From the NCBI GenBank assembly GCA_017651565.1, contig JAGCCQ010000015.1, forward strand, positions 2,034 through 66,033: a stretch of 64,000 nt of DNA, read 5' to 3'. This DNA is from Bacilli bacterium (GTDB taxonomy: Bacteria > Bacillota_I > Bacilli_A > RFN20 > CAG-826). The notes below the pieces were generated by a model, which did no database searches, had not been told where the DNA came from, and saw only the letters and a list, made by a program, of their open reading frames with translations. How positions within the stretch are numbered: the stretch's first letter is position 1; each line of letters begins with the position of its first letter. Positions 44,398 through 56,489 of this stretch are shown here, piece after piece. Made by a program: the position numbers and the translations under genes.

Positions 44398-45405
44398 TCA
44401 TTTTTTGAAGAAATCTAAAAGACTTTGGAAAGTAAATACTTTCCTATAATCATAAATTGATTCAAATTTATATTCTTTTAATCGATTACAATAAGGACTT
44501 TCTGGTCCACTTAAAATAGCGTTTGTTAAACTCATTCCAAGTTCTGTGACAATAGATTCTTCCATGAAATACATACATCTAGTATATTTATATGAATCTA
44601 ACCTACTTTTCAGTTTTAAATATTTAGTTACACCTGTAAAAGCATTAGTCCAAATATTTCCAAAAATATAATCGTAATCATGATCTTTAACATCATCTAA
44701 ATAGTTAAAAGCATCTTCATTAATGATTTTGATTTTATTTCTATTTTCACATTTTGGAAGAACATATTTTTCAAAGAAATTTATTATTTCTTGGTCATGT
44801 TCAACAACCGTAATTTCTTTTACTTTTTCATTCAAAGAAGACATAAAAGTAAAATATCCATCTCTTAAACCGAGAATTAATATTTTTCCTTTGATAATTT
44901 TTAATTGTAAATATGTAGAATCTATTACTCTAGGCAAGAGCATTTGCTTTCTATGATTTGAAAAACTGAATATAGGATATGTAATTTCTTTATTAGAAAA
45001 TCCTAAGAAAATATAGTAAAGATTACTATCGGTTTGAAGATAAGAATCGCCACTTAAAAATATCTCGTATGGTTTAATATAATCTAACGAATATGGTAAT
45101 GACGAATTTTCTTTTTTTAACTGAATTAATAAATTCAAATAAACATTATCGACATATCTATTTCCATCTTTATATCTTAAGTTTTTATTTAAATAAAAAA
45201 TATCATTTTCCTTATCTTTTAATAAAGGAGCTTTTTCTACAAAGGAATTAATAATTTCTTTTTTAATTTGGTGATTATAACTACTTTTTGGAGACGAAAG
45301 TAAAGGAAAATGATTATTCAAATACATATACAAATCTGAAATAAAATTTAGATTGTTATTATATGTTTTAAGAAGTCCATCAAGAAATTCTTTATTTGTT
45401 TTCAT
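44398..45405 (-). CDS. hypothetical protein with a spermidine-synthase-like Rossmann fold (degenerate GGGDGG motif GLRDGY)
   Basis: ILILGLRDGY...VVEHDQEII...INEDAF..L....DYIFGNIW parallels SpeE GGGDGG / VEID / DGF..L / DVII.D motifs. Confidence 0.35.
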   Translation of the reverse strand: MKTNKEFLDGLLKTYNNNLNFISDLYMYLNNHFPLLSSPKSSYNHQIKKEIINSFVEKAPLLKDKENDIFYLNKNLRYKDGNRYVDNVYLNLLIQLKKENSSLPYSLDYIKPYEIFLSGDSYLQTDSNLYYIFLGFSNKEITYPIFSFSNHRKQMLLPRVIDSTYLQLKIIKGKILILGLRDGYFTFMSSLNEKVKEITVVEHDQEIINFFEKYVLPKCENRNKIKIINEDAFNYLDDVKDHDYDYIFGNIWTNAFTGVTKYLKLKSRLDSYKYTRCMYFMEESIVTELGMSLTNAILSGPESPYCNRLKEYKFESIYDYRKVFTFQSLLDFFKK

Positions 45406-46111
45406 GAACCTTTTGCTTTAAGAGTGTAAATAAATCTTTTGAGAAACAAGTTTTACCTAATGGAACAATAGAAACAATTCCGTTTAAAACTTGATAACAG
45501 TCACTATTTTTGTCGTCGCTGAAGTCAGTTTGAAGTTCTCGTCTAGCGTAGAATCCTTCTTCTTTATGGACAAAATAATATTCGTCATGACGGTAATATA
45601 AATTGCCAATAGCGATACCTCTAACTGTGTCGCCTAAAGGGAAATTAACATTTAAAAGATAATCTGTACTAAGAAGATCATGTTCCAAAATGAACTCCAT
45701 AACAATATCAAAATATTTATCAACTAGTTCAAAATTTTTCTCGCAAGAAAACGCAACAGATTTTACCCTACCAATGAGCCCACTTAAAGCAGCGCCAATT
45801 GTGCCTGAGAACAATGAATCATATGAAATATTCCAGCCGTTATTACAGCCAGAAACAACTAAATCAAACTGCATATTTAAATTGCATAAACCGAAGCAAC
45901 AGCAATCTGCAGGAGTTCCAGAACAAGAGAAAACATTTTTATCAACTTTTTCTACAACCAACGGTCTACCAACTGTAATTGCTACTGATTTTGCAGAGTT
46001 CTCTACATTAGGAGCAACAATAACTACAGTGCCGTATTTTGATAATTTTCTTCTTAATAATTGAATACCTTCTGCAAAGTATCCGTCATCGTTTACTAAT
46101 AAAATATTCAT
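45392..46111 (-). CDS. surE: 5'/3'-nucleotidase SurE
   Basis: MNILLVNDDGY N-terminus. The shorter start is preferred because a terminator hairpin lies inside the longer ORF. Confidence 0.85.
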   Translation of the reverse strand: MNILLVNDDGYFAEGIQLLRRKLSKYGTVVIVAPNVENSAKSVAITVGRPLVVEKVDKNVFSCSGTPADCCCFGLCNLNMQFDLVVSGCNNGWNISYDSLFSGTIGAALSGLIGRVKSVAFSCEKNFELVDKYFDIVMEFILEHDLLSTDYLLNVNFPLGDTVRGIAIGNLYYRHDEYYFVHKEEGFYARRELQTDFSDDKNSDCYQVLNGIVSIVPLGKTCFSKDLFTLLKQKVHENK

Positions 46112-46138
46112 ATCTTTAATTTTATAGAAAATTAGCAA

Positions 46139-46162
46139 AAAGAAAAGAGGCAAAAGCCTCTC
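46139..46162 (-). terminator. rho-independent terminator closing the Fic/EF-G-paralog operon
   Basis: Minus strand reads agaggcttttgcctct followed by tttcttttt. Confidence 0.55.
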
Positions 46163-46180: not shown

Positions 46181-48232
46181 TCACTCAGTGATACGATTCT
46201 CTTTAATGACCTTGTCCTTCAAATATTCAGGAACTTCTTCGTATGAAGCAAATTCTCTGTTGAAGTAACCAGATGCTTGAGTTAAGGATTTAAGAATTGA
46301 TGCATAATCGATGATTTCTGCTTCAGGGATTAATGCTTCAATATCTTGTAAGCCATCCTTTTCTTCCATATTTTGAATTCTTGCACGTCTAGTATTTAAA
46401 TCTGACATAACGTCACCTGTGTATTCTACAGGAACGATAACGTGAATATTCATAATTGGTTCAAGAATAATTGGATTACATCTTGGATATGCATCTTTGA
46501 AAGCTAATATACCAGCCATCTTGAATGCTTGTTCGTTTGAATCGACTGGATGGTATTTACCATCAACTAAGACACCTTTAACACCAATAACTGGGAATCC
46601 TGCTAATGGGCCAGATTGTAATGCTTCAAAGAAGCCTTTTTCAACTGCTGGGAAATAGTTCTTTGGAACTGCACCACCGAAGACTTCTTCAGCAAATATG
46701 CTTTCTTCAGCTGGCTCAAATCTCATCTTAACAACACCATAGAATCCAGAACCACCAGATTGTTTGACATATCTACCATCACCTTCAGCTGTTTTCTTAA
46801 TAGATTCACGATAGACGATCTTCATTGGTTGAGTTGTGACATCAATCTTATAAACGTCTTTTAATTTTCCTAAGATGAAGTTGATGTGAGAATCACTAAC
46901 ACCGCCTAATAATAATTGTTTTGTTTCATTATTACGTTTAACTTCAACTGCAGGATCTTCTAATTGGATTTTTTGAAGTGCTGGACCAATCTTTGATTCA
47001 TCATTTTTATTAGCTAAAATAATAGCTTTAAAGATAACGGATGTAGGATAATGAGCGCCTTTATAGAAAATCTTTGATTTAGGTGAAGATAATGTCATAC
47101 CTGAAGCAACACCTTCTAAACGAGTAATTGCAACGATATCACCTGCATGTGCTTCGTTAATTGAATCTAATTTCTTACCACACATTGCGTATAACATTGA
47201 GATTCTTTGAGTACCACCATTAACAAATACTTCATCACCAGTACGGATAACACCAGAGTTAATCTTTACTAAGTTAATGATACCTGAATATGGATCACAT
47301 ACTGTTTTGAATACGTAACCTGAGAATGGTTCGTTATCATCAGTTGCTCTAAGAACTTCTTTACCATTTTCATCTTTTGCTTCATATGGTTTTAAATCAC
47401 ATGGAGATGGTAAGTAGTCAATGAACATATCTAACATAGTTAGACAGCCAATATTCTTTGTAGCGGAACCTACTAATACTGGAGCAAGTTCACCAGCTAA
47501 GACACCTTTACGCAATGATTCTCTAACTTCATCTTGAGTGAATTGTTCACCAGCGAAGAATTTTTCTAATAAAGCATCATCTGTCTTAGCGACTTCTTCT
47601 GCGATTGCGTTATATAATTCAAAGACTTTGTCTTTCTTATCATCATAGATAGGAGCTTCATTACATTTGACTCCATCAAAGATGAATGCTTTTAATGCGA
47701 CACAGTTTGCGAATCCATCAAAGCCATCATTATGTCCTAATGGATATGTAAATGGAATTGCTTGTTTGCCTAACTTAGTTCTAATTTCATCTAAGACTTC
47801 GTCAAACTTAACGTTATCTTTATCCATCTTATTAAGATAGATAAATGCAGGTATTCCACGTTTTCTTAATTGATTCCAGTGTTTAATTGTTCCAACTTGA
47901 ACACCAACGGATGCATCAATAATTAAGATAGCTCCTTTAACAGCTCCTAATGCACCGATGTATTCAGAAATGAAGTCATCATTTCCAGGAACGTCAATTA
48001 AGTTGATTTTGTGTCCTTTATAAATTAATGGAATAATTGCAGTTTGAATTGATCCACCACGTTTTTGTTCTTCTGGTAAGTAGTCAGAAATTGTATTTTT
48101 CTTTTCTACTTCACCTTTAGAAGGTATTAATCCACTAGCTAATGCTAATGCTTCAGCTAAAGTTGTCTTACCTGCACTTTGGTGTCCTAAGATTAATACG
48201 TTTCTAATGTTTTTTGCATCATAATTTGCCAT
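46181..48232 (-). CDS. EF-G family translational GTPase paralog with degenerate catalytic motifs
   Basis: 683 aa, five-domain EF-G-like. G1 is GHQSAGKT (canonical AHxDxGKT); switch II is DVPGNDDF (canonical DxPGH, so the catalytic His is replaced by Asn); G4 NKMD is intact. Confidence 0.75.
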   Translation of the reverse strand: MANYDAKNIRNVLILGHQSAGKTTLAEALALASGLIPSKGEVEKKNTISDYLPEEQKRGGSIQTAIIPLIYKGHKINLIDVPGNDDFISEYIGALGAVKGAILIIDASVGVQVGTIKHWNQLRKRGIPAFIYLNKMDKDNVKFDEVLDEIRTKLGKQAIPFTYPLGHNDGFDGFANCVALKAFIFDGVKCNEAPIYDDKKDKVFELYNAIAEEVAKTDDALLEKFFAGEQFTQDEVRESLRKGVLAGELAPVLVGSATKNIGCLTMLDMFIDYLPSPCDLKPYEAKDENGKEVLRATDDNEPFSGYVFKTVCDPYSGIINLVKINSGVIRTGDEVFVNGGTQRISMLYAMCGKKLDSINEAHAGDIVAITRLEGVASGMTLSSPKSKIFYKGAHYPTSVIFKAIILANKNDESKIGPALQKIQLEDPAVEVKRNNETKQLLLGGVSDSHINFILGKLKDVYKIDVTTQPMKIVYRESIKKTAEGDGRYVKQSGGSGFYGVVKMRFEPAEESIFAEEVFGGAVPKNYFPAVEKGFFEALQSGPLAGFPVIGVKGVLVDGKYHPVDSNEQAFKMAGILAFKDAYPRCNPIILEPIMNIHVIVPVEYTGDVMSDLNTRRARIQNMEEKDGLQDIEALIPEAEIIDYASILKSLTQASGYFNREFASYEEVPEYLKDKVIKENRITE

Positions 48233-48242
48233 AATTTTCCCC

Positions 48243-49280
48243 TTATAATCTGAAGTACTTGCTGTATCTACCTTTGGTAATTAATTGAATCTTGTCATCC
48301 TTAACTAATTCAGATAGAGCTTTTTCAATTGTTGTTCTTGATGTTGCATAAAGAACTCTTTCAATGATTTCTTTAGTAACAGGAGTTGCTGAATCTGTAA
48401 CAACTCTAAGAACTTTCTTGTCAGCATTACCTTCTTCAAGGTTGACTTCGATGATATAGTCGAATTTTCTATAAGCTTCGAGAACACACTTAAGGACAAA
48501 TTCTACGAAAGGAACATAATCATTTGTTGCATCTTCCCAGCCTTTTGCTGAAGCTTCAAATGCATCAATATAATCTCCAACACGGTGTTTCATAATGTTA
48601 GGGATTGCGAAGTAATCACCGATTGTGTAATCATTCTTCTTCATTAAGAAGTTGAGTAATAAACGGGATACTCTACCATTTCCATGGTTATATGGATGGA
48701 TGCACATGAAGTCGAACATGAATAAGATGCTTAAGACTAGTTTATTAATATGTTCATCTTTGAGACACTCGTTATATTGATAAATCAAGTTATCTAATAA
48801 TGGGACTACTTCTTCAGGAGCAGCTGTAACAAAGATTGTTCTGAAATCTCCGTCTGGCATCATCTCCTGAATATAGTTTTGAGAGTCTTTATATTGCCCG
48901 CCAAATTCTGGATTATAATCTTTATAAATGTAGTAATGTAGGGTAGAAATGAAGCTTCTATCTAATGGTTGATATTTATTAACTTCAGCGATTAAATTAA
49001 GCGCATTTCTATAGCCTGCTACCATGTGCTCCTGGAAAGTAACTGGTTTAGCACCTTTTACGAATATTTCTTCTTCTCTTGCGTCTTCAATTGTTACGTT
49101 ACCGATTTCGTTACTAGCGATAACTCCGGATCTAACTGCGATGTCAGTTAAAATATCTACTTTCTTTAAATCCTTTGCTCTTAAAGCTTTTCCACGATAA
49201 AGCTCAATAGATTGGAGCAAGGAATTGATGTTTGGGGTGTTTAAAGAAAGTGAAACACCCTTTAAGTCGAACATTCTCAT
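48243..49280 (-). CDS. Fic-family protein (Fic_N + Fido domain + C-terminal wHTH)
   Basis: Fic motif HPYNHGNGRVSR (canonical HPFx[DE]GNGRxxR, with His in place of the acidic residue); 345 aa. Confidence 0.8.
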   Translation of the reverse strand: MRMFDLKGVSLSLNTPNINSLLQSIELYRGKALRAKDLKKVDILTDIAVRSGVIASNEIGNVTIEDAREEEIFVKGAKPVTFQEHMVAGYRNALNLIAEVNKYQPLDRSFISTLHYYIYKDYNPEFGGQYKDSQNYIQEMMPDGDFRTIFVTAAPEEVVPLLDNLIYQYNECLKDEHINKLVLSILFMFDFMCIHPYNHGNGRVSRLLLNFLMKKNDYTIGDYFAIPNIMKHRVGDYIDAFEASAKGWEDATNDYVPFVEFVLKCVLEAYRKFDYIIEVNLEEGNADKKVLRVVTDSATPVTKEIIERVLYATSRTTIEKALSELVKDDKIQLITKGRYSKYFRL

Positions 49281-50075: not shown

Positions 50076-50498
50076 ATGAAAAAAGTAATATTTGTATGTC
50101 ATGGCAATATCTGTAGGTCTCCTGCAGCGGAATACATAATGAAACATCTATCTAAAGAGTTTGATGTTTGTAGTAGAGCTACCTCATACGAAGAAATAGG
50201 AAATGATATCTACCCTCCTATGAAAAGAGAACTTTCTAGTCACGTGGTTCCTTATGGTAGACACTACGCTACTAGAATAACTAGAGAAGATTATGAAACA
50301 GCGGATTATATCTTTTATATGGATGATGAAAACGAATATAACTTACGTAGAATGTTTGGTGAATCTGGTAAAATACTTCCAATTTACAAATTCACTCCTA
50401 ATATCAACGAAATAGAAGATCCTTGGTATTCAGATAGATTTGATTTAGTTTTTAATCAAATATACCTTTGTATTCAAAACATAATTAAGAACATTTAA
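50076..50498 (+). CDS. low-molecular-weight protein-tyrosine phosphatase / arsenate-reductase-like
   Basis: CX5R P-loop VCHGNICRS at the N-terminus. Confidence 0.8.
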   Translation: MKKVIFVCHGNICRSPAAEYIMKHLSKEFDVCSRATSYEEIGNDIYPPMKRELSSHVVPYGRHYATRITREDYETADYIFYMDDENEYNLRRMFGESGKILPIYKFTPNINEIEDPWYSDRFDLVFNQIYLCIQNIIKNI

Positions 50499-50537
50499 AA
50501 AGCCTATTTGAAGAAAAGTTTCAAATAGGCTTTTTTT
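50498..50537. terminator. bidirectional rho-independent terminator between convergent genes
   Basis: aaaagcctatttgaa...ttcaaataggcttttttt. Confidence 0.65.
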
Positions 50538-50538
50538 A

Positions 50539-52053
50539 CTAACACTTAGGATTATCAACGTGTCCAACTAAGATAGGCACACCATTAATATCTTTAATAA
50601 TGTAAATAAATGGTTGATTTAAATCTACGTTAAGGGCGTTTCTAAAAGGTTCTGCACTCCTATCGCCACCCATAGCGCCCATAGATAGGCTCTTAACTAT
50701 TGAGCCATCTTCATTAAATTCAATTTCGTTTCTTTGCTTTGCTTGTTGTAAATAGAATCTTACACCTTCAGAACCCTCTTCTAAGAAAGCTTTATGGAAA
50801 GAGTCAATATTATTATCAAACATGTCTCCGAAACCTAGACTTTCAAAACAAGCTTTAAAATCTAGGTCTGATTTAGTCTTGAACTTAGGAGTTTTTAAAT
50901 TAACAAGAATTGGTTCATAATACTCATCATGTTTTGTAGAAACTTCTTTTTCTATATTTTCTTCGAATATATTAACGTTTCTTGTAAGATCAAAAATATT
51001 ATCTTTTGTATCCTTAGGAATAATATAAGTTACAGTTGCGTATCTATTCATATAAATATCTGAAAATGAGATATAAGAACCATAATCATAATATTTGTCC
51101 GTATAAAACTCATGTTGCATATAAGTAACTTGTGTAGTTGATCCATTAGACAAGTAGAAAGTATCTTCTATGTTAGTTTCAGATAAATATTTATAAGCCC
51201 ATGCATTTTTAAAATATAAAGTAGAGAAATAATATAAGACTGTATATTCATTTACTCCTAAGAATTTTTCATCAATAAATCCTTTAGTGTCCACTGCTTT
51301 TTCTACCCATTCAACGAGTTTGCTGCCATTTGTTTGTAAATCAGTTTCATAACATTCACAGTACATTTTAGATAATTTATTTATATAGTCAGGATTTGGA
51401 TCATAAGCGTTATCAAAGAAAGCTGCATTTTTAAGTTGTGTGGTGCTTTCTTGAGAAACGAAAGAATTTGCTTTCATAACTTTGCCATAAAAGTTAGTTC
51501 TGCTTTCTTCGTTTAATCCCAACAAGTTATCAAATTGAGTTTGTAAATCTTCTCTAGAAATAGCACCATATAGTTCATTTAAAATAGAATATAGTCCAAT
51601 GGTTGCATATGACATATTATCTGCTTTAGAAGAATTAACTAAAGAATGATATGTAGTATTAGAGAACTCATTAAATGCGTTTATTTCATTTTCAGCGAGT
51701 TCATTTTTTATCGGAGCATCACTATTTGGATAAGAAATGTCATTAAGTTTTCTTACTGAATTAGATTCTGCTAATGCACTTGCATTTACAGAAAGTCTTC
51801 TTCTTGCAGTTGTTACGCTTTCATTAATATTAATATTTGAAGCAATAGGAATTGCGACAACAGCTATTGCTATAGCAGAAAAGCTAACGATTCCAATAAT
51901 CTTTCCTCTTCTTTTTCTTCTTTCTTTGGCAAGACGAATTTCGTCTTCTCTTGTAAAAATATTAGGTTCTAATTGAGAAACATCGAAAGTTAAATTTACA
52001 TTATTATTAGATTCTTCAAAATCTTTTTTAAATTGTTCTTTTATCTTATTCAT
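50539..52053 (-). CDS. anti-sigma factor-like membrane protein with an extracytoplasmic serpin domain
   Basis: Overlaps the ECF sigma gene by 8 nt. A 55-aa cytoplasmic N-terminus precedes a single TM helix (IIGIVSFSAIAIAVVAIPIA). The 360-aa C-terminal region carries serpin signatures: YFSTLYFKNAWAYKY (serpin NAxYFKGxW) and NQPFIYIIKDINGVPILVGHVDNP (serpin PFLFxIR...LFxGxxxxP). Confidence 0.6.
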   Translation of the reverse strand: MNKIKEQFKKDFEESNNNVNLTFDVSQLEPNIFTREDEIRLAKERRKRRGKIIGIVSFSAIAIAVVAIPIASNININESVTTARRRLSVNASALAESNSVRKLNDISYPNSDAPIKNELAENEINAFNEFSNTTYHSLVNSSKADNMSYATIGLYSILNELYGAISREDLQTQFDNLLGLNEESRTNFYGKVMKANSFVSQESTTQLKNAAFFDNAYDPNPDYINKLSKMYCECYETDLQTNGSKLVEWVEKAVDTKGFIDEKFLGVNEYTVLYYFSTLYFKNAWAYKYLSETNIEDTFYLSNGSTTQVTYMQHEFYTDKYYDYGSYISFSDIYMNRYATVTYIIPKDTKDNIFDLTRNVNIFEENIEKEVSTKHDEYYEPILVNLKTPKFKTKSDLDFKACFESLGFGDMFDNNIDSFHKAFLEEGSEGVRFYLQQAKQRNEIEFNEDGSIVKSLSMGAMGGDRSAEPFRNALNVDLNQPFIYIIKDINGVPILVGHVDNPKC

Positions 52054-52573
52054 TGAAACTACCTCCGTAAAAATCACGAAGTTTATATATTCCGCGTTGA
52101 TATTTAGAGGAAACTTGAGATGTAGTTAGATTATTAGCTATAGCGATCTCTTTAAATTTAAATCCATAAATTAGATGTAAGACTAAATACTGATATTCTT
52201 CTTCATCTAATACTTCTTTAAAATTTTCTAGATAGATGGAAAGATTATCGCTATCGGCTTTTCCCTCTATATTATCGGAATATGCGAGATGGTCTTTATT
52301 TTGGTTATAACGATTAATTGAAAGGTTTTTGGCAGTGACAAGTAAGAAATATTTAAGTTTACTTTCATTATCAAAATTGCCTCTATTTTCATACATCTTT
52401 AAGAAAGTCTCATTTACTATGTCTTTAGCTTCTTCTTCAGACTTTAAAATGTCATAAGAAACGTAATAGACAAGATAACGATACTTATCAAAGACAATGT
52501 TAAAAGCTTCATTCATTTCATTAACTGAAGTTGAACATAACTTTTTTAAAATCGAATAGCCAATCTTTTCCAT
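52046..52573 (-). CDS. ECF (group 4) RNA polymerase sigma factor
   Basis: Region 2 (DIVNETFLKMYENRGNF, LLVTAKNLSINRY) and region 4 (EIAIANNLTTSQVSSKYQRGIYKLR). Confidence 0.8.
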   Translation of the reverse strand: MEKIGYSILKKLCSTSVNEMNEAFNIVFDKYRYLVYYVSYDILKSEEEAKDIVNETFLKMYENRGNFDNESKLKYFLLVTAKNLSINRYNQNKDHLAYSDNIEGKADSDNLSIYLENFKEVLDEEEYQYLVLHLIYGFKFKEIAIANNLTTSQVSSKYQRGIYKLRDFYGGSFNE

Positions 52574-52620
52574 CTCAATAAATAAAACAATTAAAACAAT
52601 CGTTTTTGTCGAAATTTCTT

Positions 52621-53422: not shown

Positions 53423-54184
53423 TTAATAATCAGCTTCAAAGAATGCCCAAGAATATTGGATTAAATATTCACCACGATACATTCTAATCGCATCTGGATT
53501 ATTGTTTTTATATTCATATGCATCGCATTCTACTTTGCTTGTATCGATTGCGTAGCCATTATGATTCTTAACAAAGACATCTTCGCAGTCAATTGCCTTC
53601 AACGTTTTTTGAATATCAGAAAGAAGGTTTCTTAAATAAGACTTATGATCTTCTTCCCACATAACAGCGTTTAATTCATTAACGTTAACCATTGATCCTT
53701 CTCTATCTACTAAATATGCAAATACTTCCTTAGATTTAGAATATGAGAAACGTAATGGTTTGCCATCATAAAATACTTCGAAATTGCCAAAACATTTGAT
53801 TTTTAATTTCTTAGTAGTATGTAACTCGATTGGATATCTTAATCCATCTACTTCTTTTTGAACTTTACTTTCGTTGACAGGTTTAGAAATATAACCAGAT
53901 GCATGAATTTGTATTGCATCAATTGCGTAATTATCATAAGCAGTAACGAAAATAATGTTGATTTTAGGATTAATGCTCTTTAACTTCTTAGCGAGCATAA
54001 CGCCGTTTAATCCAGGCATTTCAATATCAAGAAAAGCGATATCTATTTGATTGTTTTTATTTTCCTCAAGAGCCTTGAGCGGATTAGTATACGCTACTAC
54101 TTCTGAGTCTTTTAAAACATTTTTGACAGACTCCTCTAATCTGAGTAATTGTAACTTTTCATCATCTACTACTAAAATTTTCAT
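53423..54184 (-). CDS. LytTR-family response regulator
   Basis: REC domain (MKILVVDDE...D53) plus a C-terminal LytTR DNA-binding domain. Confidence 0.85.
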   Translation of the reverse strand: MKILVVDDEKLQLLRLEESVKNVLKDSEVVAYTNPLKALEENKNNQIDIAFLDIEMPGLNGVMLAKKLKSINPKINIIFVTAYDNYAIDAIQIHASGYISKPVNESKVQKEVDGLRYPIELHTTKKLKIKCFGNFEVFYDGKPLRFSYSKSKEVFAYLVDREGSMVNVNELNAVMWEEDHKSYLRNLLSDIQKTLKAIDCEDVFVKNHNGYAIDTSKVECDAYEYKNNNPDAIRMYRGEYLIQYSWAFFEADY

Positions 54185-54187
54185 ACC

Positions 54188-55462
54188 CTACTTATAAAAT
54201 AACACAGTTACTTTAGTCCCCTTATCTTTTTCGCTTTCTATCTTCATTTCCCCTTTGCACATTGAAGAAATACGATATTTAACATTATTAATTCCATAAT
54301 GATTTGTAGGTCCTATATTATTTGAATCAAACCCAACACCATCATCACTTATTTCTACTATATTAGCATCTTTGCTATCATAAACTTTAATAGTTACTGT
54401 TCCACCCTCAATTTTCTTTAATATACCATGCTTTACAGCGTTTTCTACAATTGGCTGTAAAGATAAAGGAGGAACAATAAAATCCTTTTTCTTAATATCA
54501 TAGATAACACTTAATCTATCATCAAATCTCATCTTTTCTAATTCAAGATAAGTTTCAATATGTCTAAGTTCATCACTAAATGAAATTAATCCTGTATCGG
54601 TTAAACAAGCAAAATTTGCTCTTAAATATTCTGTAAAAGCATCTAATCCTTCTTGAGCTTTATCTGGATTAATCTTAATTAATGTAGAAATAGAAGCCAG
54701 AACATTATAGATAAAATGTGGTTGAATTTGTGACATCATAATTCTAATTTCTGCTTCTCGATTCTTTTTTTCTTCCTCTGAAAGCATCCTACTTTTCCTC
54801 ATATCTAGGAATAAGAAGAAAATTTCAGCAGTGAAAACAATTGATAGATATCCAAATGCATACCCTTCAAAAACATCCTGAAGAATAATAGCTGCTAGAG
54901 GAATCAAACAATATGATGTAAAAGCAAGTTTTTCTAGTTTAGTTAAATGGTGACTAGATATAGCTAAAAAGAGAACAATTCCAAATGCTACTGCTTGATA
55001 TCCTTGAGATAAAAAGAAAACTTTTGTTCTAGTATAATTTCCATTAACAGAATAAAAGAACATATGATTAAAAATGTTAATAATATCTAAAAGTACAAAT
55101 ATACCAAATAAGGTAAGATTAATGATTATTGTAGTTTTAAAAACTTTTCGTTTAGTAGGAATATATGAAACAGTATATGCAAAGAGTAACAATAACTCTC
55201 CATTATTCATAATGAATAATATCGTGTTGAAACACATTGTCAAAGCATCGTTATTATAATAAATGTTTAGTATGGTGAACATTAACTGCAATATAAGTAA
55301 AACAATTGTAAAAATAGCAAAAACTAAAAGATTTTTCTCATCTCCTCTTTTTGCCTTTTTAAATCCCGCATAAACAACATGGGCAAGCAAAAAGGAAATA
55401 CCAAAAATACATACCAAAGAGTTAAATATTGTTTTGCCGTCCATGTAACTATTATCACACAA
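54188..55462 (-). CDS. LytS/YehU-type sensor histidine kinase
   Basis: Six TM N-terminal region; His_kinase H-box HFIYNVLASI; GHKL ATPase. Confidence 0.8.
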   Translation of the reverse strand: MCDNSYMDGKTIFNSLVCIFGISFLLAHVVYAGFKKAKRGDEKNLLVFAIFTIVLLILQLMFTILNIYYNNDALTMCFNTILFIMNNGELLLLFAYTVSYIPTKRKVFKTTIIINLTLFGIFVLLDIINIFNHMFFYSVNGNYTRTKVFFLSQGYQAVAFGIVLFLAISSHHLTKLEKLAFTSYCLIPLAAIILQDVFEGYAFGYLSIVFTAEIFFLFLDMRKSRMLSEEEKKNREAEIRIMMSQIQPHFIYNVLASISTLIKINPDKAQEGLDAFTEYLRANFACLTDTGLISFSDELRHIETYLELEKMRFDDRLSVIYDIKKKDFIVPPLSLQPIVENAVKHGILKKIEGGTVTIKVYDSKDANIVEISDDGVGFDSNNIGPTNHYGINNVKYRISSMCKGEMKIESEKDKGTKVTVLFYK

Positions 55463-55541: not shown

Positions 55542-56489
55542 TTATTTAATTAATTCAACTGTTCCACCTTTAAGAACAACCATTTTTACTGCTTGAAGCG
55601 AATAATCCTGTAATTTTAAATGCAATTTCTTTCCTAGTTTCCCTCTAGCCATTACTTTTACATGTCCAACGCTAGATGGAATTATCTTTTTATCTAATAA
55701 AGCTTCAATATCAACAATATCGCCATCTTGAAAATTTTCACATATGGTGTCAATACTTACAGTGCATTTTTTGCCGTTACGCTTTTTGTTCATTACCTTT
55801 TCAGAAATATGACCTGCAGCCACTTCATCACTCATCTTTTGATCTGCTTCTTCAACAGAGATTGATTCTTCGATTTTTTTAGAAGATAAAACTCTAGTTT
55901 TAAATTCTTTTATTAATCCGTTGGAAAGTAAAGAACATGTATCTTCGTAAGGAACATAGAAATCTTTTGTACATAAGAATCCTTTAGAAATATGCAATTT
56001 TCTCATTACGATATCGATTAATTCTTTAGCGTATTCACATCTTCTATCGTTTTTAATTCTATATAAGCAGGGAGTGTCTTCGTATCTCTTGCCCCTAATC
56101 ATTTCAACTTTATATTTGTCATCAACTTCAAATAAAGGATAATAAATGCCTAATGTTTTTCCTCTAATAGTAAATCTCAATATATGTTCTTTTCCTGCAT
56201 TAATTGCTTCATAATGCCAGGAAGTTCTTGCAGTAGTATTTTGATATGAAAGGGCATGTTTTTTTATTGTGTTGTAATATTCTTTTACTTCGTCACTACT
56301 TTGGGAAAGTTTTGCCATGAAAGATTTTATGAATTTGATCTGCAATAGATTACCGTTATCATCTGTAACAGTAATTATTGCGTCGTCATCATAAATTACT
56401 TCGGATATTTTTTCTTCCATAATTGTCCTCCCAAAGTACAGACACACATAAAAACATGTTTTTATATGGTAGATAATACAAGAGGACAT
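55542..56489 (-). CDS. protein of unknown function with a C-terminal ribosomal uL15 (L15/L27A) domain
   Basis: C-terminal about 70 aa (DIVDIEALLDKKII...HVKVMARGKLGKKLHLKLQDYSLQAVKMVVLKGGTVELI) aligns with the bacterial RplO C-terminus (VTPELLLETGVI...[39 protein letters not shown]). The N-terminal 240 aa are novel. The probable start is MEEKIS at 56420. Confidence 0.5.
   Translation of the reverse strand: MSSCIIYHIKTCFYVCLYFGRTIMEEKISEVIYDDDAIITVTDDNGNLLQIKFIKSFMAKLSQSSDEVKEYYNTIKKHALSYQNTTARTSWHYEAINAGKEHILRFTIRGKTLGIYYPLFEVDDKYKVEMIRGKRYEDTPCLYRIKNDRRCEYAKELIDIVMRKLHISKGFLCTKDFYVPYEDTCSLLSNGLIKEFKTRVLSSKKIEESISVEEADQKMSDEVAAGHISEKVMNKKRNGKKCTVSIDTICENFQDGDIVDIEALLDKKIIPSSVGHVKVMARGKLGKKLHLKLQDYSLQAVKMVVLKGGTVELIK

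Follow-up and report, generated by a model that had tools for sequence, protein, structure and literature searches.

Pairs of extracytoplasmic function (ECF) sigma factors and anti-sigma factors are a major route of transmembrane signalling in bacteria, and only a minority of these pairs have a known input signal. The combination of an ECF sigma factor with a single-pass sensor anti-sigma factor is a well-known kind of system. Here, we describe a two-gene locus found in a window of 64,000 nucleotides (the whole stretch of DNA analysed: contig JAGCCQ010000015.1 of assembly GCA_017651565.1, Bacilli bacterium, positions 2,034 to 66,033), where an ECF sigma gene overlaps the gene of a membrane protein tipped with a serpin. 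In the reading that we favour, with moderate confidence, the two genes form an ECF sigma/anti-sigma module, the entire extracytoplasmic part of the single-pass anti-sigma factor is a serpin, and the module would sense proteases and respond by re-expression of its own operon.

A close described counterpart is the SigV-RsiV system of Bacillus subtilis, C. difficile and Enterococcus. There, the anti-sigma factor RsiV is the direct receptor for a host enzyme, lysozyme, and a juxtamembrane conformational switch opens site 1 to signal peptidase (PMC4183432, PMC5014341, PMC6066255). Like SigV-RsiV, the present locus is a two-gene Firmicutes ECF module; SigV is autoregulated, as the sigma factor described here would also be. 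Both anti-sigma proteins are single-pass, N-in, with a short cytoplasmic part, which binds the sigma factor in RsiV and would do so here. The proposed analogy goes further, since the serpin ectodomain would recognize an attacking host enzyme, the output would counter that enzyme, and a juxtamembrane element would lead to a site-1 cut. On the other hand, lysozyme is bound non-covalently by RsiV, whose ectodomain is not a serpin, whereas an irreversible change of conformation or a covalent trap would use up the serpin sensor. Regulated proteolysis is established for RsiV and proposed here, and the N-termini of the two proteins share no sequence similarity.

Other systems resemble parts of the locus. 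In tengpin, a serpin of Thermoanaerobacter tengcongensis, an N-terminal extension governs the native-to-latent transition (PMC1905895). Tengpin and the present protein are both Firmicutes serpins in which a conserved extension precedes the fold, and in structural comparison the AlphaFold2 model has latent tengpin (2pef) as its second-best match. Unlike the present protein, tengpin has no demonstrated sigma partner or anti-sigma module; the identity is about 20%, and the role suggested here for the extension is putative. In corticosteroid- and thyroxine-binding globulins (CBG and TBG), which are non-inhibitory serpins, loop cleavage and insertion switch hormone release. Loop insertion thus conveys information, not inhibition, and cleaved CBG is among the top structural matches. 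These globulins are eukaryotic, soluble and not involved in membrane signalling, and the analogy is mechanistic only. In BlaR1 and MecR1, covalent acylation irreversibly modifies the sensor, and proteolytic signalling over one membrane induces the resistance gene. There too, an extracellular sensor fold has been taken from a family of defence or target proteins; fold, chemistry and regulator are different, a repressor being cleaved in BlaR1/MecR1 whereas a sigma factor would be released here.

As regards the control of serpin genes, expression of the serpin of Bifidobacterium breve is reportedly inducible by proteases. A two-component system controls the serpins of B. breve and B. longum (Alvarez-Martin 2012 as cited in PMC8201313; PMC8012564), and among the described cases of bacterial serpin regulation this one is the nearest (PMC8201313). 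Both cases concern a gut bacterium with a surface or secreted serpin of regulated expression (autoregulated in B. breve). In Bifidobacterium, the sensor histidine kinase is separate from the serpin, whereas here the serpin would be fused to the signal transducer and the regulator would be an ECF sigma factor. A preliminary description of the window, made without database searches, had noted no described anti-sigma factor with a serpin domain to its knowledge. In agreement, full-text literature searches for serpin together with anti-sigma, ECF or sigma factor found no such protein, prior cataloguing in a database being conceivable. The word 'serpin' does not occur in the main text of the ECF reclassification (Casas-Pastor 2021), and a serpin anti-sigma factor is not mentioned in a review on gut serpins or in a phylogeny of the serpin superfamily. 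Public databases annotate the protein as 'serpin family protein' or 'hypothetical'. As far as the literature searches reach, two elements are new, the serpin in the role of sensor and an N-terminal module specific to this family.

The operon comprises the following features.

52583..52612, minus strand: ECF-type promoter of the operon (motif and position conserved across loci), with the -35 box TCGACAAAA at 52612-52604, a spacer of 14 nt and the -10 box TGTTTTA at 52589-52583
52046..52573, minus strand: ECF sigma gene, 175 aa (open reading frame and profile matches)
52062..52066, minus strand: GGAGG ribosome-binding site of the serpin gene, inside the 3' end of the sigma gene (read from the sequence)
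50539..52053, minus strand: serpin-tipped putative anti-sigma gene, 504 aa (open reading frame; 8-nt overlap with the sigma gene)
50497..50535, minus strand: intrinsic terminator hairpin, beginning 4 nt past the serpin stop codon

The sigma frame ends with GGA GGT AGT TTC AAT GAA TAA and the serpin gene opens with ATG AAT AAG, the 8 nt shared by the two genes being ATGAATAA. The serpin open reading frame counts 504 aa from this ATG and 512 aa from a GTG further upstream. Because the GGAGG sequence is located 8 nt ahead of the ATG at 52053 and 3' of the alternative GTG, the 504-aa product is favoured. In public annotations of identical contigs, the two genes are likewise called with 175 and 504 aa, so that the gene boundaries and the 8-nt overlap of the preliminary description hold. 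The overlap and the Shine-Dalgarno sequence internal to the sigma gene may couple translation of the two genes, which would count in favour of a sigma/anti-sigma module. The terminator has a 16-bp stem followed by a T run, and the gene 3' of the unit, a low-molecular-weight phosphatase, is on the opposite strand. The hairpin therefore closes the transcription unit at two genes, which constitute a self-contained and probably autoregulated operon.

The first gene matches Sigma70_r2 in Pfam (2.4e-11) and the NCBIfam profile TIGR02937 (sigma70-ECF) with 65.8 bits for a cut-off of 42.9, over residues 22-167. Pfam matches to region 4 are weak (E=0.002-0.006, under the Pfam cut-off). The nearest solved relative is SigW (5wuq, 6e-8), and a 100% identical protein is annotated in 'MAG: Bacilli bacterium', a metagenome-assembled genome (MAG). 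Judged from its sequence, the product is an ECF (group 4) sigma-70 factor with regions 2 and 4 only. Neither a C-terminal extension nor any other hint of self-regulation is present in it. Over-long sigma matches, which had raised the case of natural sigma/anti-sigma fusions, were upstream-extended or chimeric gene calls. In one related locus (L010), the serpin gene is intact and the sigma homologue before it, at 8-550, is broken into two open reading frames (8-214 and 230-550); the break reflects a frameshift or pseudogene, or else a faulty assembly.

The promoter motif TCGACAAAA-N14-TGTTTTA has a single perfect match within the 64-kb window, ahead of the sigma gene, all other matches in the window having 2-3 mismatches, which is chance level. 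In the main clade of related loci, both boxes and their spacing are fixed upstream of the sigma gene, and the spacer and flanks vary. Some genomes (L008, L009) show the canonical ECF -10 element CGTC. A divergent clade has TGCACCAAA-N13-CGTC (L023; TGTC in L024), with the -10 box at an equal offset from the first base. When a relaxed pattern was searched in 403 kb, 19 of the 20 matches preceded a sigma gene. The -35 box consists of CGAC or GCAC followed by an A-run, as compared to the AAC of the AAC...CGT type, and the -10 box has TGTT in most loci and CGTC in some. Autoregulation is usually recognized from a conserved ECF-like promoter ahead of the operon that encodes the sigma factor, and the promoter at 52583..52612 would be used by the sigma factor of the operon itself. 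The preliminary description had envisaged a regulon including nearby GNAT, TfoX and response regulator genes. This was not borne out, since these genes are not conserved beside the module and the motif is found only before the sigma gene.

The distance from the end of the -10 core TGTT to the sigma ATG is 12 nt in the window and 12-13 nt in nearly all loci of the main clade. The sigma gene has no Shine-Dalgarno sequence (52574-52589, minus strand, in the window; main clade). Taken together, these two features suggest that the sigma mRNA is leaderless or carries a very short leader. Sigma genes of the divergent clade are preceded by a normal leader, which includes an AAAGGA or GGAGG site.

A scan of metagenomes with the promoter motif gave mostly chance matches, ten sigma-serpin loci and six other contigs. 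In these six contigs (L060, L066, L069, L099, L104, L124), TCGACAAAA-N14-TGTTTTATT stands ahead of a gene for a protein of about 274 aa, right after the terminator of the upstream gene. The N-terminus of this protein resembles a signal sequence or that of a lipoprotein, its C-terminus holds a membrane anchor, and Pfam gives no match; at least three divergent versions of it exist. No sigma gene is present on the six contigs and no homologue of the ~274-aa protein in the window. As a lead, this surface protein may be named a candidate second target of the sigma family.

The family of the serpin protein comprises at least 177 clusters at 90% identity and, where organism labels are given, they are MAGs called Bacilli or Erysipelotrichaceae. 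The loci were surveyed with one genome per GTDB species, which gave 34 loci, many of them in rumen-derived MAGs. A homologue of the window sigma factor is encoded immediately upstream of the serpin gene, abutting or overlapping it, in 28 of the 34 loci. In another one (L031), the upstream open reading frame is too divergent for phmmer, yet it matches Sigma70_r2 and r4 in Pfam. Two loci (L020, L032) are cut or fragmentary. When the genomes whose serpin carries the cytoplasmic N-terminal segment are considered, the sigma gene is directly upstream in 29 of 30 species. The pairing of an ECF sigma gene with a transmembrane serpin, noticed by the preliminary description in the window, extends to clades where the serpin is 28-35% identical to that of the window, and the same arrangement occurs in the ten metagenome loci. 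When the search starts from the sigma factor, a tight family is obtained (56-100% identity); the most distant sigma factor with an examinable partner gene, 44% identical among the matches listed, is followed by a serpin of about 490 aa. A 520-aa partner (L159) is an artefact of a scaffold gap (XXXX) and no variant. When neighbouring open reading frames were clustered across loci, the sigma and serpin genes were conserved and no other gene was.

The relatives devoid of the N-terminal motif are informative. All five, either lipoproteins or proteins with an anchor only, have no sigma neighbour and a TATAAT-type promoter.

L018, 5950-7329: serpin as a lipoprotein (LCSCG), no N-terminal motif, no sigma gene
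L019, 4900-6339: serpin with an anchor only, no N-terminal motif, no sigma gene
P0095, P0108 and P0086 (L161-L165): short lipoprotein-type serpins, no adjoining sigma gene, pyruvate kinase or acyltransferase gene upstream

The lipoprotein relatives have no ECF promoter, and these genes are therefore not obviously in the regulon. The unfused serpins are about 50% identical to the fused ones, and both versions coexist in the same bacterial group. A single locus (L012 5661-7461) has a full-length family member and no sigma gene. In this locus, the first ~17 residues of the serpin protein are replaced and an unrelated 104-aa open reading frame, with no Pfam match, overlaps the start; it looks like a decayed module. 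Hence, the cytoplasmic motif and the sigma gene come and go together, the rest of the neighbourhood being free to vary.

The ectodomain is a serpin, with the following features.

50548..51678, minus strand: complete serpin domain, aa 126-502 (PF00079, conserpin alignment, Foldseek)
50623..50712, minus strand: hinge and reactive-centre loop, aa 448-477 (alignment, entropy, AlphaFold2)

Residues 126-502 match positions 2-370 of the 370 of the PF00079 Serpin profile (E=7.3e-38), and the protein aligns end-to-end with conserpin (5cdx, 9e-15). The hallmarks pointed out in the preliminary description, YFKNAW and PFIYIIKD...PILVGHVDNP, are present and conserved across the family, as is the hinge NEDGSIVKSLSMGAMGG. 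An AlphaFold2 model built from 59 homologues has a mean predicted local distance difference test (pLDDT) score of 80, the serpin body being mostly at 84-93. With this model, Foldseek retrieved hundreds of serpin structures (E ~1e-27; target-normalised TM-score, the template-modelling score, of 0.7-0.85). Membership of the serpin superfamily (PF00079) is therefore established by both the full-length profile and the fold.

Whether this serpin senses proteases is another matter, since serpins such as HSP47, PEDF and ovalbumin have the fold without protease inhibition. The partner could be an anti-sigma factor whose serpin fold, permanently loop-inserted or protease-inert, is a binding or stability module for another signal, such as general envelope stress or an unspecified ligand. 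We regard this alternative as unlikely, and several observations support it and weigh against protease sensing. The hinges of inhibitory serpins have Glu at P17, Gly at P15, Thr or Ser at P14 and small residues (Ala, Gly or Ser) from P12 to P9. The hinge of the present family is almost invariant, N-E-D-G-(S/T)-(I/V)-(V/I)-(K/R)-S-(V/L/I), and reads E-D-G-S-I-V-K-S-L from P17 to P9 in the window. It was already noted in the preliminary description not to be the classic GTEAAAAT, and indeed it departs from the inhibitory consensus at P12 (Val/Ile), P11 (Lys/Arg) and P9 (Val/Leu/Ile) family-wide; residues P13-P11 and P9 are bulky or charged. In addition, AlphaFold2 builds residues 450-463 as a confident strand, that is with the loop already inserted, and the top Foldseek matches are latent tengpin, latent antithrombin, cleaved CBG and cleaved PAI-1, so that the domain could be something other than a metastable inhibitor. 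Finally, the loop, counted from the conserpin alignment, is about 6 residues longer than that of alpha-1-antitrypsin, which is more than the inhibitory mechanism is generally known to tolerate well.

Against this alternative, the hinge retains P17 Glu, P15 Gly and P14 Ser/Thr (S/T/A in the family), and its even-numbered, inward-facing positions are small, P12 excepted. The choice by AlphaFold2 of the lowest-energy state of a serpin is no proof of the native state. The model shows that the loop fits in as strand 4A, its sequence being compatible with strand insertion, and does not establish which state is native. Moreover, column entropy over the 59 homologues is 0.65 in the hinge, 1.95 in the distal loop and 0.40 in the strands after the loop. 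The distal loop is variable, with insertions and deletions, and has xAAP then Met, Ile or Phe in most relatives; AAP-M/I/F resembles good serine-protease substrates. A conserved hinge followed by a variable and indel-rich distal loop is the pattern that would be expected of a bait loop. Because the loop is variable and longer than the canonical one, P1 is not assignable. Overall, attack on the loop followed by its insertion agrees with the evidence, which does not separate a suicide inhibitor from a substrate-type switch or from an inert inserted fold. The sequence likewise does not discriminate between the two mechanisms of the preliminary description, suicide-substrate capture of a protease and loop cleavage as the regulated proteolytic step.

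The protein favoured here as an anti-sigma factor carries three further segments N-terminal to the serpin fold.

51901..52053, minus strand: cytoplasmic N-terminus, aa 1-51, proposed sigma-binding module (conservation, AlphaFold2 helices)
51841..51900, minus strand: single transmembrane helix, aa 52-71, N-in (hydropathy peak, charge bias)
51679..51819, minus strand: conserved juxtamembrane extension, aa 79-125, N-terminal to the serpin fold (alignment, AlphaFold2)

The layout proposed in the preliminary description, a short cytoplasmic N-terminus and one transmembrane helix, is confirmed. A single hydrophobic stretch is found, at residues 52-71 (Kyte-Doolittle mean peak 2.66), and the excess of K/R on its N-terminal side, 8 in residues 40-58 versus 3 in residues 79-98, indicates an N-in topology according to the positive-inside bias. 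The N-terminus is made of an amphipathic helix (MNKxKxQFKKDFE), an L.FD..QLE.N motif and a basic stretch, in this order. Residues F8, D11, F12, E13, L21, F23, D24, L28 and N31 are near-invariant, and in helix 2-16 an i/i+4 hydrophobic stripe is found among them. AlphaFold2 predicts helices at residues 2-16 and 35-49. Beyond the membrane, the juxtamembrane extension follows the pattern SVxT..R.YS.NEI.IAESNTFKKLN.V.YP.G; A95, N98, L103, Y108 and P109 are invariant across 24 sequences and pLDDT is 87-91 from about residue 100. This extension may be a conformational relay or the region of site 1.

Column entropy, averaged over segments of the alignment of the 59 homologues, is 1.20 for residues 1-16, 1.44 for residues 17-33, 2.03 for the basic linker, 2.47 for the transmembrane helix and 1.29 for the serpin body. 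Thus, the cytoplasmic helix is conserved like the serpin fold, far above the transmembrane helix, and is under purifying selection; a plain signal anchor would not be expected to be as constrained as residues 1-33. This bears on another explanation, which we find quite improbable, in which the protein is an anchored effector only: a membrane-anchored surface serpin, co-transcribed with the sigma factor and under its control, with an N-terminus that does not bind it, the sigma factor being regulated otherwise. In favour of this explanation, the N-terminus is short, with only about 33 conserved residues, and is unlike any known anti-sigma domain. As the lipoprotein versions show, no sigma factor is needed for the ectodomain to work at the surface, and it is general knowledge that some ECF groups need no second candidate anti-sigma gene. 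It does not account for a conserved cytoplasmic helix (entropy of 1.2 versus 2.47 in the membrane), unexpected of a mere anchor, nor for the joint loss of the N-terminal motif and the sigma gene. Moreover, no other conserved neighbour is available to act as anti-sigma factor, and the sigma factor, with 175 aa and regions 2 and 4 only, bears no sign of self-regulation.

The shortness of the N-terminus belongs to a set of observations that speak against the anti-sigma assignment itself. Class I anti-sigma domains have four helices in about 80 aa, with HxxxCxxC in ZAS members, and are recognized by zf-HC2 or RskA-type profiles. Residues 1-123, searched together with three homologues against Pfam at E<=10, gave nothing relevant and no anti-sigma domain, and the N-terminal profile matched no solved anti-sigma chain among PDB sequences at E<=10; the anti-sigma domain that the preliminary description had proposed to search for in this region was thus not recovered. 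With two predicted helices, no profile match and no HxxxCxxC or other Cys/His motif in residues 1-51, the N-terminus does not belong to class I or ZAS. When its profile was run against a set of 5.8 billion proteins, it found short fragments of the same serpin family and nothing else, and phmmer with the 58-aa cytoplasmic part against 1.84 billion representatives found family members and K/E-rich repeat proteins only. The motif occurred on no other ectodomain in these searches, which gave no sign of modular swapping, and the N-terminus, if it binds the sigma factor, would be a family-specific module. That residues 1-51 bind the sigma factor is what we infer from their co-occurrence and co-loss with the sigma gene, their conservation and the topology. 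Besides, no site-1 or site-2 protease was identified in a crude motif screen of the open reading frames of the window, where one 1016-aa frame was flagged. The hosts are uncultured. In spite of these points, an anti-sigma function of the serpin protein, as put forward in the preliminary description, is supported by the conserved adjacency of the two genes, the loss of the sigma gene with the motif, the conservation of the cytoplasmic helix and the ECF-type promoter.

On this basis, a working cycle is proposed, in which we infer sigma binding, a protease as the signal, and regulated proteolysis. At rest, the conserved amphipathic helix at the N-terminus of the 504-aa protein would keep the sigma factor at the membrane. 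An extracellular serine protease of the rumen or gut would attack the exposed and variable reactive-centre loop, and the serpin would go through an irreversible loop insertion, with or without trapping of the protease. Insertion, or the resulting complex, would alter the packing or exposure of juxtamembrane residues 79-125. The segment thus exposed would be cut at site 1 and intramembrane (site-2) proteolysis would follow. The sigma factor, once set free, would transcribe the promoter of its own operon, so that the spent surface serpin would be replaced, and it would probably also drive a few other surface proteins. In a stricter version, which is possible and which we put forward tentatively, the spring-loaded stressed-to-relaxed transition of the serpin would itself be the transmembrane signal, one cut in the loop irreversibly rearranging the ectodomain together with the juxtamembrane extension and so committing the anti-sigma factor to destruction. 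If so, the protein would be a single-use, stoichiometric protease counter, coupling the use of a suicide inhibitor to its resynthesis, and the first serpin shown in bacterial transmembrane signal transduction.

That the serpin targets the cell's own HtrA- or subtilisin-type protease, which would also be the site-1 protease, so that endogenous activity would be reported, is very unlikely: serine site-1 proteases are generally known, such as DegS acting on RseA, and a secreted subtilase (Peptidase_S8 at 2e-44 plus Big_2; L014 11824-13479) is encoded about 4.3 kb downstream of the serpin gene in one locus and again in L015 and L020, but these are just 3 related loci, no protease gene is conserved beside the module and none stands beside it in the window. 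The subtilase of the three loci could be an endogenous target or a processing protease.

If the proposal of a protease-sensing anti-sigma factor is correct, it has several implications. The serpin sensor domain points to its own class of ligands, serine proteases, which makes the input directly testable. For serpin biology, bacterial gene regulation would join inhibition and hormone release among the uses of the metastable fold, and the module would be a natural design where a consumable inhibitor reports its own depletion. In the ecology of the gut and rumen, protease stress would be a condition specifically monitored by uncultured Bacilli with reduced genomes. Finally, a compact module made of a promoter, a sigma factor and a sensor, apparently orthogonal, could serve as a protease-responsive synthetic switch.

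Concerning the other genes of the window, a LytS-type histidine kinase (PF06580 plus HATPase_c) and a response regulator form a pair at 53423-54184 and 54188-55462 on the minus strand. The preliminary description had taken the response regulator upstream of the module for a LytTR protein; its C-terminal 130 residues have no Pfam match at E<=1, LytTR included. TfoX_N and GNAT genes follow this pair on the same strand, and the cluster was found only in the species of the window. The GNAT, TfoX_N, response regulator and LytS-type kinase genes were rejected as parts of the module, as they are not conserved with it and carry no promoter motif. Downstream of the module, also on the minus strand, are a Fic-domain protein (48243-49280), an EF-G-like GTPase with all five EF-G domains (46181-48232) and SurE (45392-46153); nothing ties these housekeeping or unrelated genes to the module. 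Finally, a 315-aa open reading frame (55542-56489, minus strand) carries, at residues 243-312, a domain of the ribosomal uL15/L27A type (PF00828, 3.5e-9). The ~240 residues before this domain match nothing significantly, and such a fusion is unusual for PF00828.

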